From positions 15,314 through 79,313 of the forward strand of contig JAEESF010000009.1 in NCBI GenBank assembly GCA_016286205.1: a DNA stretch of 64,000 nucleotides, given 5' to 3'. The position numbers and the translations under genes are program-made. The DNA comes from Paludibacteraceae bacterium. GTDB lineage: Bacteria; Bacteroidota; Bacteroidia; Bacteroidales; Paludibacteraceae. Numbering within the stretch: the stretch's first letter is position 1; each line of letters starts with the position of its first letter. The notes beneath the pieces were generated by a model. That model was given only the letters and a program-made list of their open reading frames with translations. It searched no databases and had not been told where the DNA came from. Below are positions 6,405 through 60,983 of this stretch, piece after piece.

Positions 6405-6440
6405 CAAAGGTACAAAAAATGTACCAAAGCACAAAATTTT
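6405..6440 (-). promoter_or_regulatory. Promoter for the DUF5103-like gene (-7 TACCTTTG)
   Basis: The reverse complement reads ...ttttgtgctttggtacattttttgTACCTTTGcagccgtaaATG. The -7 box ends about 10 nt before the ATG, so the leader is very short. Confidence 0.45.
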
Positions 6441-6450
6441 TTGCTAATTA

Positions 6451-6482
6451 TTTGCACATTTCAAAAAAAAGCAGTACTTTTG
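6451..6482 (+). promoter_or_regulatory. Promoter cassette for tRNA-Thr (-33 TTTGCA, -7 TACTTTTG)
   Basis: The sequence is TTTGcacatttcaaaaaaaagcagTACTTTTGca, about 30 nt upstream of the mature tRNA 5-prime end. Confidence 0.7.
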
Positions 6483-6513: not shown

Positions 6514-6586
<73 letters not shown>

Positions 6587-7001: not shown

Positions 7002-7033
7002 TTTGCGTATGTCAGAAAAAAGCAGTAAATTTG
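7002..7033 (+). promoter_or_regulatory. Promoter cassette for queH (-33 TTTGCG, -7 TAAATTTG)
   Basis: The sequence is TTTGcgtatgtcagaaaaaagcagTAAATTTGcg. The ~55 bp upstream (gtacgttttttcataaaatcaagtcaaaatttgcgtat) is near-identical to 42717-42760. Confidence 0.7.
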
Positions 7034-21384: not shown

Positions 21385-21824
21385 GATATTGTATTGGGTT
21401 CTTTTTCTTTCTTTTTGAAGAAAATGAGACAAACGAAATAATTGATGACTCCACCGATAAAGATAACGAGATAACTGATATAGTCATCACGCCATGTAGG
21501 GAAACAACGAACCATCAAAGGCAACAATCCCAGTTGGACAGCCATGTTAAGAACACGGGCCAGTAAGAATCCTCCCGCGTTCTTTAGATTAGGCCGTGTG
21601 CCGAAAGTATACCAATTGGAAAAGAGGTAGTTAGGAATCATCTCCAACACATAACCTATAGCAAATGCTACTACATACAGGGGGAGTCCCTTTTCCGGAT
21701 GCCCAAGTGCCCACAAGGCAAGCAGAAAAAGCCCGGTCTGGATAAACATGCCCGTTGTGCCGACCACAGTAAAGCGGATAGCAGAGCGGATTTTATCCGG
21801 CAGATATGAAGAAGGAAGGCGCAT
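21381..21824 (-). CDS. GtrA family membrane protein
   Basis: 147 aa with four hydrophobic helices and FTVVGTTGMFIQTGLF / YLFSNWYTF typical of GtrA-like proteins. Confidence 0.75.
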   Translation of the reverse strand: MRLPSSYLPDKIRSAIRFTVVGTTGMFIQTGLFLLALWALGHPEKGLPLYVVAFAIGYVLEMIPNYLFSNWYTFGTRPNLKNAGGFLLARVLNMAVQLGLLPLMVRCFPTWRDDYISYLVIFIGGVINYFVCLIFFKKKEKEPNTIS

Positions 21825-21837
21825 TTTCTCTCGTAGT

Positions 21838-21912
21838 GCTCTCGTGATTGTCTCGATAAAGTCTCGTGTTTGTCTCGACTCGATAGTCTGTCGTTAGTCT
21901 GTCGTTAGTCTG
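21838..21912. repeat. Short-period tandem repeats between alaS and the gtrA-like gene (ctcgtgattgtctcg...; tagtctgtcgt x2.7)
   Basis: The gtctcg-type 11-mers are related to those at 27.07 and 60.8 kb. They are followed by tagtctgtcgt tagtctgtcgt tagtctga. Confidence 0.85.
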
Positions 21913-27029: not shown

Positions 27030-27243
27030 GATAGTGCGCTCGATAATGTCTCGTGAACGTCTCGAGCACTCCAGGTAATTGTCTCGTGATTGTCTCGTGA
27101 TTGTCTCGGTAGTAAATCGGGTATATATACATAGTATATATAAATATGCAGTTTTTGACAAGGCATTTTTATGCAGAAAACTTGATTTTTTATGTTTTCC
27201 ACATAAAAACTTGCATATGTCAAAAAAAAGCAGTACTTTTGCG
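27030..27243 (+). repeat. Dispersed ~215-bp composite intergenic element, copy A (hairpin with gtctcgtga 11-mers + TATATAC palindrome + promoter cassette)
   Basis: By eye, over 90 percent identical to 60761..60983 in the same orientation. Copy B carries one extra ttgtctcgtga unit. Confidence 0.9.
27210..27241 (+). promoter_or_regulatory. Promoter cassette for the OMP gene at 27257 (-33 TTGCAT, -7 TACTTTTG)
   Basis: The sequence is cTTGcatatgtcaaaaaaaagcagTACTTTTGcg. Confidence 0.7.
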
Positions 27244-36597: not shown

Positions 36598-37500
36598 TTA
36601 CATTCCAAACTTATACGCTTGCATCACATTTTGTAGTAACGAGGCGATCGTCATAGGTCCTACTCCGCCCGGCACAGGTGTGATATAGGCGGCTTTAGGT
36701 GCTACGTTATCAAAATCAACATCGCCTACTACGCGATAGCCACGTGGCGCTTTAGGGTCCTCTATGCGATTGATACCTACGTCGATCACTGTTGCGCCTT
36801 CTGCCACCATATCTGCTTTTAGCAGTTTGGGACAACCGGCCGCTACGATGATGATATCCGCTGTGCGACAGACAGCTGCCAAGTCGCGTGTTTTGCTATG
36901 GCAGATAGTGACCGTAGCATCGCCTATGGCAGACGAGCTCATGCCCGGGAAACTCAAGTACGGGCGCTGCATCAGCAACATCGCGATAGGTTTGCCCACG
37001 ATGTTGGATCGGCCTATGACCACTACGTGCTTGCCTTCGGTAGAAATATGATACCGCGCCAATAGTTCACGAATACCTCGTGGTGTAGCACCGATGATGG
37101 AAGGCAATCCAAGCACCGTACGTCCCACATTGGCAGGCGTCAGGCCATCCACATCTTTGCGATAATCTATAGCCGCCAGGATGTTCTGCTCGCTAATATG
37201 TTCCGGCAGCGGCGACTGGACGATGAAACCGTCTATGTTGGGATCGTTGTTGAGTCGATATATCTCTTGAAGCAAGGTCTGCTCGGTGATGTATTCTTCG
37301 TACGCAATCTTCTCCGCCTCGATGCCCACTTCTGCGCAAGCTTTCAGTTTGTTGGCCACATAGGTCTCGCTGGCCGGATTATGGCCGACGATGATGATAG
37401 CCAAGCGCGGAACACGTTTGCCTTCCGCCTTCAGCCGTTCTACCTCGCTGTGCAGTTCCCCGCAAATCTCTGCCGCTATTTTCTTACCGTCTATAATCAT
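36598..37500 (-). CDS. folD: Bifunctional methylenetetrahydrofolate dehydrogenase/cyclohydrolase
   Basis: 300 aa with YVANKLKAC, VIGRSNIVGKPIA and TPVPGGVGPMT. Confidence 0.93.
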   Translation of the reverse strand: MIIDGKKIAAEICGELHSEVERLKAEGKRVPRLAIIIVGHNPASETYVANKLKACAEVGIEAEKIAYEEYITEQTLLQEIYRLNNDPNIDGFIVQSPLPEHISEQNILAAIDYRKDVDGLTPANVGRTVLGLPSIIGATPRGIRELLARYHISTEGKHVVVIGRSNIVGKPIAMLLMQRPYLSFPGMSSSAIGDATVTICHSKTRDLAAVCRTADIIIVAAGCPKLLKADMVAEGATVIDVGINRIEDPKAPRGYRVVGDVDFDNVAPKAAYITPVPGGVGPMTIASLLQNVMQAYKFGM

Positions 37501-38798
37501 CAGCGCTTACGCATTTGCTGCACTTTCTTCATCATCTTGCTGGTCTGGTCAAACTGCTTGAGGAAGCGGTTGAGCGCCACTATATCTACGCCTGCGCCTT
37601 TGGCGATACGATTCTTTCGGCTACCATTGAGCAGACCTGGATTCGCACGCTCAGCCGGCGTCATCGAATTGATCATGGCTTCGATGGGCTTGAACGCATC
37701 GTCGCTGACGTCGATATTCTTCATTGCCTTGTCCATACCCGGAATCATGCCCATCAGGTCTTTCATCGAACCCATTTTCTTGATCTGGTTGAGTTGGCCG
37801 ATGAAATCATTGAAATCAAACTGATTGTGGGCAATCTTCTTGCTGATTCGGCGTGCTTCGGCTTCGTCGTACTGCTCTTGAGCACGTTCTACTAGGCTGA
37901 CGACGTCACCCATACCCAAAATACGGTCGGCCATACGAGCCGGATGGAACACATCGAGCGCCTCCATCTTCTCGCCCGTTCCGATGAACTTAATTGGCTT
38001 GTTGACCACCGAACGGATAGATAGAGCGGCACCACCACGTGCATCGCCATCGAGCTTGGTCAGTACCACGCCATCAAAATCGATGCGGTCGTTGAATTCC
38101 TTGGCAGTATTCACTGCGTCCTGACCGGTCATAGCATCCACTACGAACAGCGTCTCAGAGGGAGAAATGGCTTTCTTAATAGCCTCTATCTCCTGCATCA
38201 TCTGCTCGTCCACGGCCAGACGACCAGCGGTATCGACGATCACTACGTCGTAACCCAAACGCTTGGCCTCGGCTATAGCATCTTGGGCTTTCTTGACGGG
38301 ATTAGCCTCTCCTTCGCCGGTATAGACCTTCGCATTGATCTGCTCGCCTAGTACGCGCAACTGCTCGATGGCAGCAGGACGATAGACGTCGCAGGCGACC
38401 AGCATGACGCGTTTGTTCTTCTTGGTCTGCAACCAGTTAGCCAGTTTGCTGGCAAAAGTGGTCTTACCGGAACCCTGCAAACCGGACATCAGAATGACAG
38501 CAGGCGAACCTTTTAGGTTCAGTTCCTGTGCTTCGCCGCCCATCAGTTCTGCCAGTTCGTCGTGCGTGATCTTGACCATCAACTGTCCGGGACGTACACT
38601 GGTCATGACGTTTTGGCCCAGTGCTTTCTCTTTCACCTGGTCAGTAAACTGCTTGGCGGTCTTGTAGTTGACATCTGCTTCCAGCAGCGCTTTGCGGATA
38701 TCCTTGACTGTTTCCGCAATGTTTATTTCGGTAATACGGCCTTCACCTTTTAGGATTTTGAACGACCGTTCCAGTCTCTCTGATAGATTATCGAACAT
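37500..38798 (-). CDS. ffh: Signal recognition particle protein Ffh
   Basis: 432 aa with GLQGSGKTT, DTAGR, TKLDGD and a Met-rich M domain (MGSMKDLMGMIPGM). Confidence 0.95.
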   Translation of the reverse strand: MFDNLSERLERSFKILKGEGRITEINIAETVKDIRKALLEADVNYKTAKQFTDQVKEKALGQNVMTSVRPGQLMVKITHDELAELMGGEAQELNLKGSPAVILMSGLQGSGKTTFASKLANWLQTKKNKRVMLVACDVYRPAAIEQLRVLGEQINAKVYTGEGEANPVKKAQDAIAEAKRLGYDVVIVDTAGRLAVDEQMMQEIEAIKKAISPSETLFVVDAMTGQDAVNTAKEFNDRIDFDGVVLTKLDGDARGGAALSIRSVVNKPIKFIGTGEKMEALDVFHPARMADRILGMGDVVSLVERAQEQYDEAEARRISKKIAHNQFDFNDFIGQLNQIKKMGSMKDLMGMIPGMDKAMKNIDVSDDAFKPIEAMINSMTPAERANPGLLNGSRKNRIAKGAGVDIVALNRFLKQFDQTSKMMKKVQQMRKR

Positions 38799-38821
38799 AG
38801 TACTCCAAATTAAATCGGCCG

Positions 38822-38856
38822 CAAAATTACTAAAAAATTATCAAATATACAAATAT
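38822..38856 (-). promoter_or_regulatory. Promoter for ffh (-7 TAATTTTG)
   Basis: The reverse complement reads tttgtatatttgataattttttagTAATTTTGcggcc. Confidence 0.6.
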
Positions 38857-38861
38857 TTGAC

Positions 38862-38886
38862 AAAAAAAAGCACCCCGAAGGGTGCC
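38862..38886 (-). terminator. Rho-independent terminator ending the small-ORF operon
   Basis: On the minus strand, GCACCC-UUCG-GGGUGC followed by U8. It lies 8 nt after the stop of ORF 38894..39280. Confidence 0.85.
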
Positions 38887-38893
38887 GAACGCG

Positions 38894-39280
38894 TTACGGA
38901 TTCTGCTGATCGTACGCATCTCCGCAGACTTTCCAGAGGTAGGAGACAAAGGTCTTCTTGCCGTTGGGTTGGTCCTTTTGCGCGACGAAAGCGGCTTGGT
39001 CGGCTGCTATAGTGCCCAGGTTCTGACGGCGTGCTGCGACTGCGCGGCTAACTGCTGCGAACTTAGTACGGCGGTCCAACTCATCCTGATTGGGCAAGGT
39101 AGAGCGGTTGTACTCACCTACGGCGTAGAGCCGTGTGCATACGGGGTTCAGCGTCGGTGCTGTGCGGTGTGTCGCTAGCAGTGCACTCGAGTGCGAACTG
39201 TGTGCCTGACCTTTTTTCGGTCGCTTACTCAATAATCCGGAAACATACTCGATTCCTTTCATCCATTTTACAATAGCCAT
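38894..39280 (-). CDS. Small hypothetical protein, paralog B (128 aa)
   Basis: ORF in an operon with 39309..39614. It shares MA....M....SG.L, P..(Q/E)...R.KF..V..A.AA and AF..Q. patterns with the upstream ORF. I recognise no family with confidence. Confidence 0.6.
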   Translation of the reverse strand: MAIVKWMKGIEYVSGLLSKRPKKGQAHSSHSSALLATHRTAPTLNPVCTRLYAVGEYNRSTLPNQDELDRRTKFAAVSRAVAARRQNLGTIAADQAAFVAQKDQPNGKKTFVSYLWKVCGDAYDQQNP

Positions 39281-39308
39281 AATAATTAAGGTTTTTGGTT
39301 TTTATTCA

Positions 39309-39614
39309 TTAATCTCCTAATTTTGCATACTCTTGTGCGAACATATAGCCGCGCAAGGTTTTGTACTCTTTTTGTTTTCTAAACGCTGTTTCATATGCGT
39401 CTTTTTCTTCTTGGGTCAAAGCTGCTATTGCTATCACAACTTGTTTGAATTTGTTACGTTGTGCTATCTGAAGTGCACTCGGCTCTCCGGTAAACGGATT
39501 ACATATCTTACCGGTGTAGAGCGTTCCGTTTCTGTTAGCAAAATAGACATCTGAATGACCACACAATTTCCCGCTAAGGGATAGCAACAATTCCATTGGA
39601 ATATATTTTGCCAT
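39309..39614 (-). CDS. Small hypothetical protein, paralog A (101 aa)
   Basis: MAKYIPMELLLSLSGKLCGHSDVYFANRNGTLYTGKICNPFTGEPSALQIAQRNKFKQVV... It is the first ORF after the long leader and lies 28 nt upstream of paralog B. Confidence 0.6.
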   Translation of the reverse strand: MAKYIPMELLLSLSGKLCGHSDVYFANRNGTLYTGKICNPFTGEPSALQIAQRNKFKQVVIAIAALTQEEKDAYETAFRKQKEYKTLRGYMFAQEYAKLGD

Positions 39615-39784
39615 TGTTTACTGACAAACTTTTTTTACCCGCATTGTCTTCTCGGGGTTAAGGATAATAGGTTTTCGCATCTTCTCTTAAAAATTCATCT
39701 TCTTTATGTGCACATATGTTAAATTCCTTTCTTCTTACATATTATAAATGAATAGATATAGTAACCCCTTGACGTATTTCGTAC

Positions 39785-40085
39785 ATTTTTCACCCGCCCG
39801 ACCGGTTCTACGGTCGTCCCGATTCCCTTCTCGGGCTGTACAGGGCGGTGCCATTTCGTTATAACCTGTTATTACCGCTGGACGATCAATCCCAGAGGAT
39901 GACGAGCTAAAGTGGTTCCCCAAAGCGCCTAACCACTGGCGGCATAGCCTGACGTTATAACTCGCAAACGCAGCGCACCGGCATGTCTTAATAGGTGCAT
40001 GGCTTCTTAGTTTTCGGGGGCTCCGATTATTGCCGAAGGGACATCGGTTCTTTTTGTTTCGCGCAGAACCGGCTGCATCGCTTTT
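39785..40085 (-). ncRNA. Candidate structured RNA / cis-regulatory leader core (unclassified)
   Basis: GC-rich (roughly 55 percent by eye) block inside an AT-rich, ORF-poor 660-bp gap and downstream of a TACCTTTG -7 box. At least 7 hand-found helices (coordinates in the findings). The strand is inferred from the promoter, the downstream operon and one G-U pair. Confidence 0.4.
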
Positions 40086-40136
40086 GCTTATAGAGCAAAC
40101 AATTATGTAAGAACGAGACTTCTCTCAAATTTTGTA

Positions 40137-40170
40137 CAAAGGTACTACTTTTTTTTCATCTAAAAAAGTC
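40137..40170 (-). promoter_or_regulatory. Promoter driving the leader RNA and small-ORF operon (-7 TACCTTTG)
   Basis: The reverse complement reads gacttttttagatgaaaaaaaagtagTACCTTTGtacaaaatttgag. The -33 region is T-rich but has no clean TTTG. Confidence 0.5.
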
Positions 40171-40219
40171 CGTGTCGAAAATTCTGTAATTAAGTGTTTT
40201 ATTGCCGGTTTATTGTAAT

Positions 40220-40242
40220 CCCTGTACATTTTATGTACAGGG
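40220..40242 (-). terminator. Perfect 10-bp hairpin after ORF 40276..40863 (CCCTGTACAT-ttt-ATGTACAGGG)
   Basis: Read directly. There is no clear U-tract, which I believe is common for Bacteroidota terminators. Confidence 0.5.
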
Positions 40243-40275
40243 AAAACCTATAATACCATTAAACTGCAGTTGTGC

Positions 40276-40863
40276 TTATGCTACAACGTCCAACAATCGA
40301 TCAATACTCTCCTCGTCCGGAAAGAAACTCCAAAATAACCCAAAAATAGGACTGAACGCGATGTCGGCTTCTTCGAATAAACGACGCATATCAATTAATG
40401 GACCATCTCCATCATCTATAAAAGACCGCAAAGGAGTGTCTTTACGTCTCCTTTTATATTTCTGAATGGTCTCATAGTCTGACAAAACAAAGTAACTGGC
40501 AATCACATAGGCGACATACCAATCTTCGGCATTCGAATAATAATCATTGCCAATTTTTGCCATGTCGGCCTTAAAACGCGCAGATGTCATTAGAGCCAAT
40601 GCCTCATTTATCAATGCCTCTTCTAAATCGGCGTAGGACAGTCGCTCTGGACGAACTACTTCCCAGTACGCGCGTTTCAAACATGCTTTTAAAACCTTTT
40701 CCGTCTGGCGTTTCTCCTTATTAAATAGGTCCCAAAACGCTGCCAGCACCATCTCTACTGGACTTTTTTCATTACTCTTCTCTCCTACGGAGAAAGTCTT
40801 TGAGGAATCTAGTTCCTCGTTCTCTTGCCCTGTAACACAAGGCGTTACTAAATCATTCACCAT
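40276..40863 (-). CDS. Hypothetical protein (195 aa), no recognisable family
   Basis: Single long ORF in AT-rich DNA with an acidic N-terminus and a helical body (LKACLKRAYWEVVRPERLSYADLEEALINEALALM). It has its own promoter and hairpin. Confidence 0.55.
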   Translation of the reverse strand: MVNDLVTPCVTGQENEELDSSKTFSVGEKSNEKSPVEMVLAAFWDLFNKEKRQTEKVLKACLKRAYWEVVRPERLSYADLEEALINEALALMTSARFKADMAKIGNDYYSNAEDWYVAYVIASYFVLSDYETIQKYKRRRKDTPLRSFIDDGDGPLIDMRRLFEEADIAFSPIFGLFWSFFPDEESIDRLLDVVA

Positions 40864-40962
40864 ATATCAAATGAATTTTTGAATTTGCCGAAAATATCTC
40901 TATCGAACGGATCTCGAACCGATAAGCTAACCTTATCCACCCGCGTATCTTGAAATCTGATG

Positions 40963-40970
40963 CAAAATTA
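40963..40970 (-). promoter_or_regulatory. Putative -7 box (TAATTTTG) for ORF 40276..40863
   Basis: Reverse complement of caaaatta, about 100 nt upstream of the ATG. Confidence 0.35.
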
Positions 40971-41071
40971 CATAAAATCTCCGACCTAAAAAACCTTTTT
41001 ACGATTTTTATATAACATAGTTATATAAACCCAGTTTAATCCATCTTCACCTCATCTCTCATCCACAAAAA

Positions 41072-41103
41072 TACAAAAAAAGAGTCTAACAAAAGTTAGA
41101 CTC
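41072..41103 (-). terminator. Rho-independent terminator after the BACON lipoprotein gene
   Basis: On the minus strand, GAGUCUAAC-uuuu-GUUAGACUC followed by U7. Confidence 0.8.
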
Positions 41104-41126
41104 GTAATTTTCACTGTTGCAAATGT

Positions 41127-42068
41127 TTATTTATCACAGACTGGACGCACCAATAAACCATCATTCCGGAAATGAGAATGGACAACATATGGATCATATG
41201 ATTTCACTAAAGCGTAACTACAAGCTCGATCATTATAAACCTCATCTACTGTTGAACACCAATAGAGACAAGTTTGCTTAGAGTAACTAGAAGATCCGCC
41301 ATATGCGTATTGAACCCAAGGCATGTATATGGTATTACTATTAGGGCCTGTTATGCGATAGCCATCCCCTTCTCTTTCATTCGAACATTTCTTTGCAAAT
41401 TCTTCAAATTCTTCTTTCGTCGGCATTCTCCACTTTCCGCCCCATTTCACATGGGCAACATCATCGGATAAAACCAACACCCTTTTATTATCTATAACTC
41501 CATAACGGCTATTTGTAACATATTTTGTATATTGTTTTGTTGAAGAATCATAAAACGAATACTGTGCTTCCGTATAGGTCTCTGGTCTGGGACTCGTTTC
41601 TCCCCAAGCATAAAATGTTCCATTGTCCGTTTCAGAAGAAGCGCCGACATTCATGGTCGCCCAACGAACACTCAATCCTAAATCTACCCAAGCATGACCA
41701 TTTTCTACTCCCGAACTTACCACCAAACGTTTAATAGTTAGAATAGCAGACCCGCTTCCATTACTGAACATCACTTTTGCAGAATCCGTGGGACCTGCAG
41801 CTACTGTGACTGTTATAAAAGCGTCACCTTCTCCACTCTCTGGTGAGAATGTTACCCAAGAACAATTGGTCGTGGCAGTCCACGTTTTAGAGGAAGTTAG
41901 TGTTACTGAATAACTTCCCCCTGTTCCGTCATTTTTTATGGTATTTGGACTACATTTAATGGAGGAAGACGGAGATATTGGAGAATCTTCGTTGTTATTT
42001 GTTCTTTCGCACCCTGCTAACGCGAAACAAAGTACAGAGGCTAAAATGGTATTAATTATCGTTTTCAT
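41127..42068 (-). CDS. Lipoprotein with N-terminal BACON-like Ig domain and C-terminal DUF1566/FISUMP-like domain
   Basis: 313 aa with lipobox LCFALAGC. The BACON-like segment is GGSYSVTLTSSKTWTATTNCSWVTFSPESGEGDAFITVTV. The C-terminal part has GHAWVDLGLSVRWATMNVGA...GTFYAWGE...WRMPTKEEFEE. Family names are from memory. Confidence 0.65.
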   Translation of the reverse strand: MKTIINTILASVLCFALAGCERTNNNEDSPISPSSSIKCSPNTIKNDGTGGSYSVTLTSSKTWTATTNCSWVTFSPESGEGDAFITVTVAAGPTDSAKVMFSNGSGSAILTIKRLVVSSGVENGHAWVDLGLSVRWATMNVGASSETDNGTFYAWGETSPRPETYTEAQYSFYDSSTKQYTKYVTNSRYGVIDNKRVLVLSDDVAHVKWGGKWRMPTKEEFEEFAKKCSNEREGDGYRITGPNSNTIYMPWVQYAYGGSSSYSKQTCLYWCSTVDEVYNDRACSYALVKSYDPYVVHSHFRNDGLLVRPVCDK

Positions 42069-42094
42069 ATCATTGTATCTTTTACAATTTCACA

Positions 42095-42349
42095 TTAAAT
42101 ATATAATGGTTCAAGAAGCTCCATATCAGCGAACACTTCACTATAGCTTTGCTTTAATTCAGCAAGAGCCTCCTTTACTTTTCCTTGTTCTGTGACAAGT
42201 AGAGTAAATGGATGCTTTTTCCCATCGGTCGTTATGACTTTGCCATATACTACAACAGAGACATTTGTCGTGTTGTCAAAAATAAGTTCTAGATGCCCCT
42301 CGCATTCTAATGCATGTGCATACTCTTTAGTAATTGGAAGTTTTTTCAT
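42095..42349 (-). CDS. Small hypothetical protein (84 aa)
   Basis: First ORF of the operon with the BACON lipoprotein (26-nt spacer). No signal peptide and no recognisable family. Confidence 0.5.
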   Translation of the reverse strand: MKKLPITKEYAHALECEGHLELIFDNTTNVSVVVYGKVITTDGKKHPFTLLVTEQGKVKEALAELKQSYSEVFADMELLEPLYI

Positions 42350-42680
42350 TGTATATATAATATTTTACCCCTCTTACACCTTCAGGGATTGGTATAACAA
42401 AAAGCGCGGGTAACTGTTGTTATCCGTGCTAGTGGTCGTAGGAAACCATGTGGTCGGAGAAACAAGCAGTTACTCGCGTTGCGTATATATTAGTACACTT
42501 ACCTAGTGTAAGATACATCATAAATACACACGTGAGCATCTACTTCGTCTTGTTCCTGAACCACTTGAAAGTTCCTACGTTCCTAGCATCAGAAAACAAG
42601 CGTGTAAACGCTTTTAATCAATATGTCCTTCTGTTTACCGTCGGTAAGCGACGACATTGGTCTCAAAAACCTTTGCGGCG

Positions 42681-42714
42681 CAAAGGTACAACAAATTTTT
42701 TATATGTGCAAATA
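42681..42714 (-). promoter_or_regulatory. Promoter cassette pointing into the island (-33 TTTGCA, -7 TACCTTTG)
   Basis: The reverse complement reads TTTGcacatataaaaaatttgttgTACCTTTGcgcc. This implies a ~325-nt leader before ORF 42095..42349. Confidence 0.6.
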
Positions 42715-42746
42715 AATGTACGTTTTTTCATAAAATCAAGTCAAAA

Positions 42747-42778
42747 TTTGCGTATATCAGAAAAAAGTACTACTTTTG
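42747..42778 (+). promoter_or_regulatory. Promoter cassette for the PagL-like gene (-33 TTTGCG, -7 TACTTTTG)
   Basis: The sequence is TTTGcgtatatcagaaaaaagtacTACTTTTGca. Confidence 0.7.
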
Positions 42779-42800
42779 CACTCGCAAAAGTTCGAAACAA

Positions 42801-44189
42801 ATGCGGAAGATAGGAATAATCATATTACTGACGGTGGGTTCGCTCGCCTGTTGGGCGCAGGACCAATGGGCCAACAGCGAACTCTTTGCCACCAAACCAG
42901 AACAGCCCAAGATAGACTATCGTCTGTCGTTGCGGGCGGGTATGATTATGCCTGACGGCAAAGTGGACGACATGCTCGGTCAGAAAGGTGAATGGGTAGG
43001 TCCGACCATTGGCGGCGAATTTGCTATGACATTTCATCCCAAATGGTCTTCGCTGCGCGATTGGAACGGTGCCGCCGTAGGCGTGGCGCTGAGTTACTGG
43101 AAATTTGACTGCACGCGTTGGGGCGCGGAAGATATAACCGGTCACGCCATTGCGCCATACGCCTTTGTAGAAATACCTTTCTACACGCATCGCTACTTCG
43201 AGATTGGTGTTCGTCCGGGTATAGGCTGCTCGTTCATCACCAGGACCTACTACAACACCACGACAGAAGAAAACAGATACACCTCGCTACAGGTAGAGGG
43301 TGTCAACCGCTCGGTGGGTTCGGTATTCAATTTCTATTTCCCAGAGGCGCTATACCTGAATTTCCCGATTCGTGATGGCTGGTCGATCGGCATAGCAGGC
43401 GGTTGGTACCACATGAGTAACGGTAGTCTGCGTCAGCCGAACTCGGGATACAACATGTTCATGGGCGAACTGGCCGTGCATTATCAGCCGTACAAAGACG
43501 AGAAGCGAACTACGTTCGGTGAGAGTTACCTGATAGAAGAAAAAGAGGCGGAAGATCCGCGCGAGTATATCGTTGCTCCTCTGACGGACGACAAGAAAGA
43601 AAGTCTGAATGCAATGCAGAAAGCGCATTGCGAACTGGAACTGTCGCTGAGCGGAGGTGCCAGACAAGTGTATTACAAGGACCGTCAGTCGTTCTTCTGC
43701 TCGGAGATGCAACTGGCCGCCTACTGGCGTGCACACAAGATTTTCCGTTTGGGCGGAGGTGTTGATGTGTTCTATGACGGCGCATACACCGACCGCGAAA
43801 CCGCGTTTGGCAAGACCTATCTAGGCGGTGCTACGCAGACCGATTGTTGGCGCGTGGGACTGAGCGTACAACCGGAATTTGTGATAGGCAAATTTACTGC
43901 CGGTTTCCATTTTGGCATGTATGTGTTCGACCCTGTCAAGAACCGTGAAGCCAAGACAGGAACAGACGAATACAACAAGCTCTGGACCGAACACAAGACA
44001 CTAGATAAACCTTTGGTTTACGGCTACGATCTGCTGAACGCAGGTAGTGCGGGTTATCCGGACGGTTGGCTCTATACGCAGATAGTGCTGCGCTATCGTT
44101 TCCCGTACCATTTGTTTGCCCAACTGGCCATGAAAGCCCACCTGACGAAAGTGGAATTTGTTTCGGCAGGCGTGGGAGTGTATTTGTAA
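42801..44189 (+). CDS. Acyloxyacyl hydrolase (PagL-like lipid A deacylase) family outer-membrane protein with long C-terminal extension
   Basis: I chose the start at MRKIGIIILLTVGSLACWAQ. The motif GGWYHMSNGSLRQPNSGYNMF matches the H-x-S-N-G catalytic motif. The total of 462 aa is about twice a canonical PagL barrel. Confidence 0.6.
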   Translation: MRKIGIIILLTVGSLACWAQDQWANSELFATKPEQPKIDYRLSLRAGMIMPDGKVDDMLGQKGEWVGPTIGGEFAMTFHPKWSSLRDWNGAAVGVALSYWKFDCTRWGAEDITGHAIAPYAFVEIPFYTHRYFEIGVRPGIGCSFITRTYYNTTTEENRYTSLQVEGVNRSVGSVFNFYFPEALYLNFPIRDGWSIGIAGGWYHMSNGSLRQPNSGYNMFMGELAVHYQPYKDEKRTTFGESYLIEEKEAEDPREYIVAPLTDDKKESLNAMQKAHCELELSLSGGARQVYYKDRQSFFCSEMQLAAYWRAHKIFRLGGGVDVFYDGAYTDRETAFGKTYLGGATQTDCWRVGLSVQPEFVIGKFTAGFHFGMYVFDPVKNREAKTGTDEYNKLWTEHKTLDKPLVYGYDLLNAGSAGYPDGWLYTQIVLRYRFPYHLFAQLAMKAHLTKVEFVSAGVGVYL

Positions 44190-46462: not shown

Positions 46463-46494
46463 CAAAAGTACTGCTTTTTTTTGACATATGCAAA
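46463..46494 (-). promoter_or_regulatory. Promoter cassette for the GT2 operon (-33 TTTGCA, -7 TACTTTTG)
   Basis: The reverse complement reads TTTGcatatgtcaaaaaaaagcagTACTTTTGcagcc. Confidence 0.7.
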
Positions 46495-46554
46495 TAAAAA
46501 CCAAAGATTTTTGATAGCATTTTTTAAGAAAAAGTATTACTTTTTTCTTAGAAA

Positions 46555-46586
46555 TTTGCATATGTCAGAAATTTGTTGTACTTTTG
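46555..46586 (+). promoter_or_regulatory. Promoter cassette for the lptD-like gene (-33 TTTGCA, -7 TACTTTTG)
   Basis: The sequence is TTTGcatatgtcagaaatttgttgTACTTTTGcagg. Confidence 0.7.
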
Positions 46587-60707: not shown

Positions 60708-60745
60708 GCAAAGATACAACAAATTTTGCATTTATGCAAATTTTT
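60708..60745 (-). promoter_or_regulatory. Promoter for the DUF349-ftsE-sufE operon (-7 TATCTTTG)
   Basis: The reverse complement reads tttgcataaatgcaaaatttgttgTATCTTTGcagg. Confidence 0.6.
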
Positions 60746-60760
60746 CGACGAAAAAAAAGA

Positions 60761-60983
60761 GGAGTGTGCTCGATAATGTCTCGTGATTGTCTCGTGAACG
60801 TCTCGAGCACTCCAGGTGATTGTCTCGTGATTGTCTCGTAATTGTCTCGGTAGTAAATCGGGGATATATACGCAGTATATATAAATATGCAGTTTTTGAC
60901 AAGGCATTTTTATGCAGAAAACTTGATTTTTATGTTTTTTACATAAAAACTTGCATATATCAAAAAAAAGCATTACTTTTGCA
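60761..60983 (+). repeat. Dispersed ~220-bp composite intergenic element, copy B
   Basis: Same order of modules as 27030..27243. Hairpin ggagtgtgctcga...tcgagcactcc enclosing gtctcgtga units; 3 further attgtctcgtg units; ATATATAC-gca-GTATATAT palindrome; tatgcag direct repeats; promoter cassette. Confidence 0.9.
60950..60981 (+). promoter_or_regulatory. Promoter cassette for prfB (-33 TTGCAT, -7 TACTTTTG)
   Basis: The sequence is cTTGcatatatcaaaaaaaagcatTACTTTTGca. Confidence 0.7.

Follow-up and report, generated by a model that had tools for sequence, protein, structure and literature searches.

In the window analyzed here, a 64,000-nt stretch of the Paludibacteraceae bacterium contig JAEESF010000009.1 whose coordinates are used throughout, a conserved non-coding block read on the minus strand (hereafter the core) precedes a small gene encoding a 101-amino-acid (101-aa) protein. 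We found that the core is a previously unclassified structured RNA and a candidate new family of a familiar kind, namely the orphan structured RNA on a mobile element. With moderate confidence, we favor the reading that it represents a genuine, conserved orphan domain of ~315 nt within a leader RNA, which would act in cis on the transcript that carries it.

A conserved promoter points into the core. The -7 promoter box on the minus strand at 40137-40144, TACCTTTG, is of the Bacteroidetes type; the plus strand reads caaaggta. An earlier sequence-only reading of this region had proposed the box, and we confirmed that the reverse complement of 40137-40144 is TACCTTTG and fits the TAnnTTTG consensus. 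It was kept in the homologs, as TAACTTTG or TACCTTTG in all core-bearing loci wherever upstream sequence aligned, and as TAACTTTG/TATCTTTG in the coreless relatives L084/L083. Transcription would start near 40128-40132. The strict TTTG-N17-23-TAnnTTTG pattern had no match at the promoter ahead of the core, indicating that a -33 element is either missing or weak. The ~0.5 kb from the promoter to the ATG at 39614 contains a single sense open reading frame (ORF), of 62 aa and starting with TTG, in agreement with the earlier statement that no credible ORF precedes the gene. The GC-rich core described in that reading was likewise evident, with 54.5% GC at 39800-39999 versus 32-39% on either side. 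No second promoter or terminator occurs before the ATG; the minus strand from the core to the ATG showed neither a terminator-like site nor a conserved processing signal. An intrinsic-terminator-like hairpin followed by T7 (38869-38886, minus strand) directly follows the last gene. Together, these features predict a unit of ~1.27 kb consisting of the promoter, the leader, the 101-aa gene, a 128-aa gene, and the terminator. A terminator-type attenuator was rejected as a candidate, given that no minus-strand terminator lies between the core and the ATG.

Homologs of the core were collected by several routes. Among 80 GTDB loci with the 101-aa gene family, the core was present in L006 only, and look-ups of close protein relatives added L086 (the same sequence as L087). 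A 19-mer scan of JGI metagenomes returned 39 matches, of which only L118 was genuine. A search with the translations of spurious core ORFs recovered 5 proteins among 5.8 billion, all from the same loci, and yielded the DNA variants L155 and L159. Three DNA patterns gave no true match in IMG/VR, all 19 matches to a 17-mer being due to chance. In L001 and L002 the leader is 100% identical to that of the window and hence uninformative for covariation. This left six distinct sequences, which represent four lineages: two consist of the window and of L006 alone, a third of L086 and L155 (96% identical), and the fourth of L118 and L159 (98% identical). A homologous non-coding region thus exists in other genomes, and its substitutions mostly preserve the helices. 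Every core is followed by a homolog of the 101-aa gene wherever the contig extends that far, and all copies are located in mobile-element mosaics of Paludibacteraceae/Bacteroidales. We conclude that the core element is genuine but rare.

The core was more strongly conserved than its surroundings. Its identity between lineages was 80-88%, with a 24-nt deletion in the window counted as mismatch, compared with 76-84% for the adjacent 101-aa coding sequence, 62-74% for the linker that follows the core, and 59-69% for the upstream region. In 50-nt windows compared with L006, core columns were 88-98% identical, both flanks fell to 40-60%, and the edges of the block were sharp. That a non-coding core is better conserved than the neighboring gene indicates that it is under selection.

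To this block, RNAalifold assigned a consensus fold from the four lineages with 88 pairs in 16 helices, arranged in three consecutive domains. The structured core spans 39770-40081 on the minus strand (~315 nt) and reaches 335-340 nt in relatives keeping an extra hairpin. Domain 1 (40081-39964) is closed by a 10-bp helix (40081-40072 with 39974-39964) around four elements: P2 (40071-40065/40050-45); AUG/CAU (40044-42/40001-39999); CUUC/GAAG (40038-35/40006-03), which carries the hairpin UCGG/CCGA (40026-23/40017-14); and the hairpin GCACC/GGUGC (39998-94/39979-75). Domain 2 (39961-39858) is closed by two invariant GUUAUAAC palindromes (39961-54 and 39865-58) and contains UGCCGC/GCGG-UA (39944-39/39878-73), the hairpin AGUGGUU/AACCACU (39937-27/39921-11), and a variable hairpin (~39900-39889). 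In domain 3 (39853-39770), the helix UGGC/GUCA (39853-50/39773-70) encloses a three-way junction formed by CCGCCC/GGGCGG (39848-43/39799-94) and the hairpins CCCGA/UCGGG (39835-31/39822-18) and GACCG/CGGUC (39815-11/39804-00). The two copies of the self-complementary 8-mer GTTATAAC (39858-39865 and 39954-39961) are invariant in 6/6 homologs, and either intramolecular pairing or dimerization is possible.

The substitutions between homologs respected this fold. In the four sequences, 98% of cells were paired and 10 pairs showed compensatory double changes; column shuffles gave 2.5 ± 1.4 such pairs, with 0/500 reaching the observed count, and slid controls gave 0-2. In the six-sequence model-fitted alignments, which were made in two halves (domain 1, and domains 2 and 3), 98.2% and 98.7% of cells, respectively, were paired, with 6 + 5 = 11 double-change pairs. 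The third pair of the closing helix of domain 1 is G-U in the window, G-C in L006, L086, and L155, and C-G in L118 and L159. Also in domain 1, CUUC/GAAG changes to CUCC/GGAG (U-A to C-G), and GUUG/CAAC changes to GUCG/CGAC in a hairpin inserted in P2, which is missing from the window. Two compensatory pairs occur in the 39937/39911 hairpin of domain 2 (AGUGGUU/AACCACU to GGCGGUU/AACCGCC) and at least three in the variable hairpin (AUCC/GGAU in the window, GAUCUC/GAGAUC in L086). Changes in domain 3 fall in loops or are one-sided wobbles (U-A/U-G, G-C/G-U, C-G/U-G), apart from one A.C mismatch in L086/L155. Since L155 and L159 were fetched after the fold had been fixed, they served as an independent test set. 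They added one compensatory change (U-A to C-G in the variable hairpin, L086 versus L155) and two wobble changes, with the remaining differences in loops or junctions; in L155, P2 is a perfect 8 bp.

The variation further showed a preference for unpaired positions and for one strand. Variable columns accounted for 27% of paired compared with 43% of unpaired positions (Fisher p=0.0013). Owing to 44 G.U cells, 98.5% of pairs were canonical on the sense strand versus 90.4% on the antisense strand. This asymmetry indicates that the fold belongs to one strand, that with the polarity of the 101-aa gene, as expected of a transcript from the conserved promoter. These data bear on the possibility that the core is not a functional RNA but either a DNA-level element (an origin, a single-strand origin, or a recombination site) or a recently exchanged neutral GC-rich cassette that folds by chance. 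In line with that possibility, the minimum free energy (MFE) of the window sequence is no better than that of shuffles, the core occurs in few lineages in a mosaic, recombining context, it adjoins replication-type genes at some loci, and it is flanked by AAGATAC-like direct repeats; the pairing evidence, taken alone, would also suit a single-stranded DNA origin. However, variation avoids the stems, the conserved promoter points into the core, and the compensatory changes together with a G.U bias specific to the transcribed strand speak against a double-stranded DNA element. A neutral cassette is further contradicted by the core being better conserved than coding sequence while its flanks have diverged to 59-73%, which means that an exchange was not recent enough. 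We therefore regard a DNA element or neutral cassette as quite improbable.

Several observations nevertheless weigh against a functional leader RNA. There are four independent lineages only, a sample too small for a formal covariation test, and the fold was derived from the same alignment in which the pairs were counted. Two branches account for most of the compensatory events, and the many invariant helices are uninformative. The six-sequence double-change counts were reached by 20/500 and 40/500 shuffles in the two halves, a modest excess, which we attribute to two lineages being represented twice. With six sequences, RNAalifold also offers an alternative to the invariant UGCCGC helix, making the interior of domain 2 less certain. 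Folding energies gave little signal: against dinucleotide shuffles, the MFE z scores were +0.20 (minus strand) and -0.30 (plus strand) for 530 nt and +0.14 (minus) and +0.04 (plus) for the ~311-nt core, and in the homolog set they ranged from -0.7 to -2.05, with the window at +0.37. The energy of the consensus structure in L086, -81 kcal/mol versus an MFE of -107.5, was not informative. The covariance model R1, built on domain 1, and its counterpart R2, built on domains 2 and 3, detected no further copy in ~90 loci with the 101-aa family, and the JGI metagenome scan and IMG/VR contributed one true core match and zero, respectively. Gene relatives at 79-86% aa identity do without the core, having a gene for a winged helix-turn-helix (wHTH) protein or a short leader instead, and core-bearing loci are interspersed with coreless ones in a neighbor-joining tree of the coding sequences. 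Finally, the cis-regulatory mechanism is purely inferred.

The sequence-only reading had listed seven helices, all of which are complementary in the sequence as it described. Six of the seven recur in the RNAalifold consensus; the remaining one, 40023-27/40043-47, is broken in L118 and L159, and the consensus replaces it by AUG/CAU, by the compensated CUUC/GAAG, and by UCGG/CCGA. Supporting changes were found in three of the six: two compensatory pairs in 39911-17/39931-37, a C-G to U-G change in the helix closing the three-way junction, and wobble changes in the hairpin 40065-71/40045-50. The other three are invariant, save for one A.C mismatch in 39818-22/39831-35 in the L086/L155 lineage. 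The mutually exclusive pairing proposed for 40065-72 did not hold up. Its long-range partner, 39802-09, shows two mismatches each in L006, L118, and L159 with no compensation, and the 3-4 contiguous pairs left in 3/6 sequences are no better than in shuffles.

This result is relevant to a metabolite-sensing riboswitch with mutually exclusive pairings. The position of the core in a promoter-proximal, sense-strand 5' leader and its complex, conserved fold would suit a riboswitch, and in the window 40065-72 does pair with either 40045-51 or 39802-09. Among the homologs, though, only the local P2 is maintained, the leader contains no conserved terminator/antiterminator or alternative sequestering the start codon, and no known riboswitch model matched. 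In the four lineages available, no part of the fold stands out as a ligand pocket. Nor is there an association with metabolic genes: the core precedes the hypothetical 101-aa family, the downstream genes encode hypothetical mobile-element proteins, and the 101-aa family usually lacks the core, with orthologs existing without it. We therefore consider a riboswitch very unlikely. The part of the earlier proposal that stands is a promoter-proximal, untranslated, structured minus-strand RNA; its riboswitch-like switching logic is unsupported.

The core also matched no known RNA family. Rfam 15 comprises 4227 models, and a score at or above the gathering threshold of the family was taken as the criterion of membership. 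A cmscan of the whole window at gathering thresholds found only a tRNA at 6514-6586 and nothing on the core; at E<=10, positions 38800-40400 gave three chance matches outside or beside the core, none covering it; and the homologs L006, L086, L118, L155, and L159 had nothing on the core at E<=5. The sequence-only reading had called the RNA unclassified after failing to match RNase P, tmRNA, SRP, 6S, and cobalamin motifs, and the cmscan against Rfam extends this to all of its families. BLASTN of the leader against phage and plasmid records found no similar DNA, and no description of the motif was found in the literature.

We also considered whether the core could be a decayed or unrecognized coding sequence. 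In the window, a run of 108 codons without a stop extends across the whole core, and the frame is also open in L086 and L155; only 84/5000 shuffles contain a run as long, and gene callers predicted core ORFs in some assemblies (P0121-P0125). However, the frame is broken by frameshifts in L006, L118, and L159 (3/6), and its start codon is not conserved. Variable columns are spread evenly over the codon positions (30/32/32), and indels of 1, 2, 4, and 5 nt are tolerated. The translation of the frame had no match in Pfam, NCBIfam, or PHROGs, and its only relatives among the 5.8 billion proteins were the five from these same loci. A coding gene is thus scarcely credible. A remnant of the wHTH gene was rejected as well, tblastn of the 249-286-aa wHTH protein showing no similarity to the core.

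The remainder of the leader is divided between variable and conserved parts. Ahead of the core, an optional 5' hairpin, UUGCU-CUAUA-AGCAA (40084-40098, minus strand), is not a conserved part; it is longer in L086 and missing in L006, L118, and L155. Behind the core lies a purine-rich linker (39685-39769, minus strand), poorly conserved in the alignments, which holds one GAAGAUG repeat at 39697-39703. In L006, L086, and L155, the linker contains an extra GNRA-loop hairpin. This hairpin, with a GAAA tetraloop, is located at L006:3895-3925 and L086:1400-1430, with compensation between GUC/GAC (L006) and GCC/GGU (L086); it is missing from the window and none was evident in L118. A second GAAGAUG repeat (39678-39684) marks the start of the conserved 5' untranslated region (UTR) tail (39615-39684, minus strand), which contains the hairpin CCCCGAG...CGGG at 39638-39657 and then an A-rich run before the ATG. 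The tail is common to the coreless relatives: the nhmmer matches in L003-5, L083, L084, L090, and L091 were restricted to it.

Ahead of the 101-aa gene lies a mosaic junction, by which three types of locus were distinguished. In type A (L003-5, L131, L133, and L134), a gene for a 249-286-aa wHTH protein lies upstream of the 101-aa gene. In type B (the window and L086), a gene for a 195-220-aa protein is followed by the core. Type C has a 431-535-aa gene, with weak DUF3987 hits and BT4734-like_N in L085, followed by the leader, either with the core (L006, L118, and L159) or without it (L083-85). L083 and L084, which lack the core, share the promoter, with AAGATACATGCGCG immediately behind it and the ATG ~190 nt away; in L118, ~530 nt comprising the core and linker lie between two AGATA-containing repeats close behind the promoter. 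Every leader type contains, from promoter to ATG, 2-5 copies of GAAGATG or GAAGATAC motifs, with the core-bearing segment between two of them. These repeats could be operators or RNA-protein binding sites, or substrates for deletion or insertion of the core. The mosaic junction, together with the interspersed tree, indicates that the core is an optional, exchangeable cassette and not an obligatory part of the control region of the gene.

This arrangement raises the question of a selfish intron-like or otherwise mobile RNA inserted in the 5' UTR. Compared with the coreless L083/L084, L118 resembles the product of a ~530-nt insertion between two (A)AGATA repeats after the promoter, and the size and multi-domain fold fall within the range of ORF-less group I introns. 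However, no Rfam group I or II model matched the window region at E<=10 or the homologs at E<=5. By eye, none of the registers of the AGATA repeats in L118 versus L083/L084 yielded both a U at the end of the 5' exon and a G at the end of the intron. Terminal inverted repeats are absent, and deletion between repeated AAGATAC motifs explains the coreless forms equally well. An inserted intron-like RNA would thus come as a great surprise to us.

A further alternative is a stand-alone non-coding RNA that uses the promoter of the operon and, once processed out of the leader, works in trans, as a scaffold, or as an assembly made of RNA only, for example in immunity, anti-defense, or replication priming. 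The core forms a module with sharp edges between divergent flanks, it is optional and exchanges with other upstream modules, it sits at the extreme 5' end of the predicted transcript, and its two invariant, self-complementary GUUAUAAC 8-mers could pair within or between molecules; the neighbors moreover include DUF3987/BT4734-like genes of the primase-helicase type. All this would suit such an RNA. However, the stretch from the core to the ATG, free of terminators and conserved processing signals, the presence of the same gene family after the core wherever the contig reaches, and the lack of a known trans target speak against it, and we judge a stand-alone RNA unlikely. A bolder proposal is that the core is the first example of a new class of complex structured RNA in mobile elements of rumen and gut Paludibacteraceae, with an autonomous biochemical role and interchangeable with the wHTH module. 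Such a role would be, for instance, that of a protein-free regulator of RNA polymerase, an RNA-only assembly formed through the two palindromes, or a ribozyme. We hold this proposal to be rather doubtful.

Our preferred interpretation remains the cis-acting leader domain. The RNA would be transcribed from the conserved TAnnTTTG promoter at 40137-40144 and make up the 5' end of the leader in a two-gene unit, which itself would belong to a mosaic mobile-element or prophage-like module of Paludibacteraceae. Its predicted fold comprises, in order, a four-branch domain with a 10-bp closing helix, a second domain that the pair of GUUAUAAC palindromes closes, and a three-way junction. In this form the core may act in cis as an interchangeable regulatory or stabilizing leader module, most plausibly with a protein or RNA polymerase, and not a metabolite, as its binding partner. 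Protein or polymerase binding, or stabilization, is favored because the core is 5'-terminal, lacks a conserved expression platform, precedes non-metabolic genes, and occupies a slot that holds a wHTH regulator or nothing in relatives.

The two downstream genes are paralogs. The 101-aa gene (39309-39614, minus strand), the first of the unit, starts at the ATG at 39614. About 500 clusters of the protein collection make up its conserved family, which is present in several copies per genome, often at contig ends; the named members were found in Paludibacteraceae metagenome-assembled genomes from rumen and gut. The second gene, for the 128-aa protein (38894-39280, minus strand), falls in the same BLAST cluster (fam0), with 30% identity to the 101-aa gene in the alignment. 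Neither protein had a match in Pfam, NCBIfam, PHROGs, PADLOC, or the PDB sequences. An AlphaFold2 model of the 101-aa protein (mean predicted local distance difference test score 71, poor in the N-terminal half) had no significant Foldseek neighbor in PDB or BFVD, and a protein profile search found none of the 101-aa family in IMG/VR. Compared with L001, the differences in the 128-aa gene are largely synonymous, fitting a coding sequence. The body of this gene (38894-39222) has 57-60% GC and ~55 differences from L001/L002, many at third codon positions; the adjoining 1.39 kb (39222-40610) are 100% identical in L001/L002, and homology with both loci stops at 38889. The jump in identity at 39222 points to a recombination breakpoint or an allelic cassette within the 128-aa gene.

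The neighbors of the wider family resemble those of a prophage or mobile element and include an HNH_3 endonuclease, a small helix-turn-helix protein, a small membrane protein, DUF5675, and lipoproteins. Upstream of the unit, the gene for a 195-aa protein (40276-40863, minus strand) shares 35-38% aa identity with a 220-aa protein of L086 and a 237-aa protein of L131; its homologs precede either the core or the wHTH protein gene at other loci. In L001, the block consisting of the 195-aa gene, the core, and the 101-aa and 128-aa genes is found in another genomic context, adjoining a Fic-like_C gene. In the window, the AT-rich island (39200-42800, 32-45% GC) sits between ffh (37500-38798) and a 510-aa gene (42657-44189), both with ~52% GC, and also holds a BACON/Lcl_C-like lipoprotein gene (41127-42068) and an 84-aa ORF (42095-42349).

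Elsewhere in the window, the TTTG-N17-23-TAnnTTTG pattern matched 10 times over the 64 kb versus 1.4 expected, marking canonical Bacteroidetes promoters, several of which are divergent pairs (matches at 6405-6482, 7002-7033, 38822-38853, 42681-42778, 46463-46586, and 60709-60740). Tandem 11-nt repeats (GTGATTGTCTC-like) occur at 21822-21877, 27031-27130, and 60761-60860, and a 152-nt repeat, 95% identical, at 27039-27190 and 60780-60931, upstream of strong promoter-like sequences.

To our knowledge, bacterial RNAs with so many conserved helices and no family are uncommon. The locus offers a small, clean experimental system, in which a single promoter and a single terminator frame one RNA and two small genes, together with natural variants that lack the RNA or have a protein gene instead. 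Should the RNA prove to control the unit, it would illustrate how regulatory modules made of RNA and of protein can replace each other in mobile elements of Bacteroidales, a setting in which cis-regulatory RNAs have been charted only poorly. Should it have no effect, conserved pairing in a few recombining copies of a mobile element would prove to be weak evidence of function.

Among known systems, riboswitches and other cis-acting leader RNAs such as cobalamin (RF00174) and T-box (RF00230) resemble the core in being promoter-proximal, on the sense strand, ahead of the first gene of an operon, and rich in junctions. Unlike them, the core has no conserved expression platform or alternative pairing, precedes non-metabolic genes, is optional among orthologs, and matches no model. 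ORF-less group I introns (RF00028) are of similar size, have multiple helices, and can appear as an optional insertion flanked by a short repeat; the core differs in that it matches no covariance model, violates the splice-site rules at the implied boundaries, and is situated in a 5' UTR, not within a conserved gene. The processive antitermination RNAs, HK022 put and Bacillus EAR, measure 70-120 nt and are structured elements placed just after the promoter of an operon of the phage or mobile-element type, with no dedicated ligand. The core is unrelated to them in sequence and larger, and no terminators to be overridden were identified within its 1.3-kb unit. The phage P4 CI RNA and the C4 antisense RNA family (RF01695) derive from an operon leader; the CI RNA is ~70-80 nt long and pairs with repeated targets in the leader. 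The core would likewise be made from a leader on an element with a gene of the primase-helicase type, but it has no Rfam match and no complementary targets were found.

Further parallels are the large orphan structured RNAs of phages and mobile elements, GOLLD (RF01998), ROOL (RF03087), and HEARO/IscB omega RNA (RF02033). The core matches none of these models in sequence or structure, is much smaller (~315-340 nt), and is represented by four lineages only; it is also embedded at the 5' end of an mRNA leader with a conserved promoter, and no adjacent nuclease or association with tRNA was seen. Like them, however, it is a multi-domain, ORF-less RNA on prophage or mobile DNA of gut and rumen bacteria and forms a GC-rich block in an AT-rich intergenic region. 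The large orphan RNAs that have been studied well have proved surprising: OLE is one such case, HEARO turned out to be the omega RNA of IscB, and GOLLD and ROOL form RNA-only cages.

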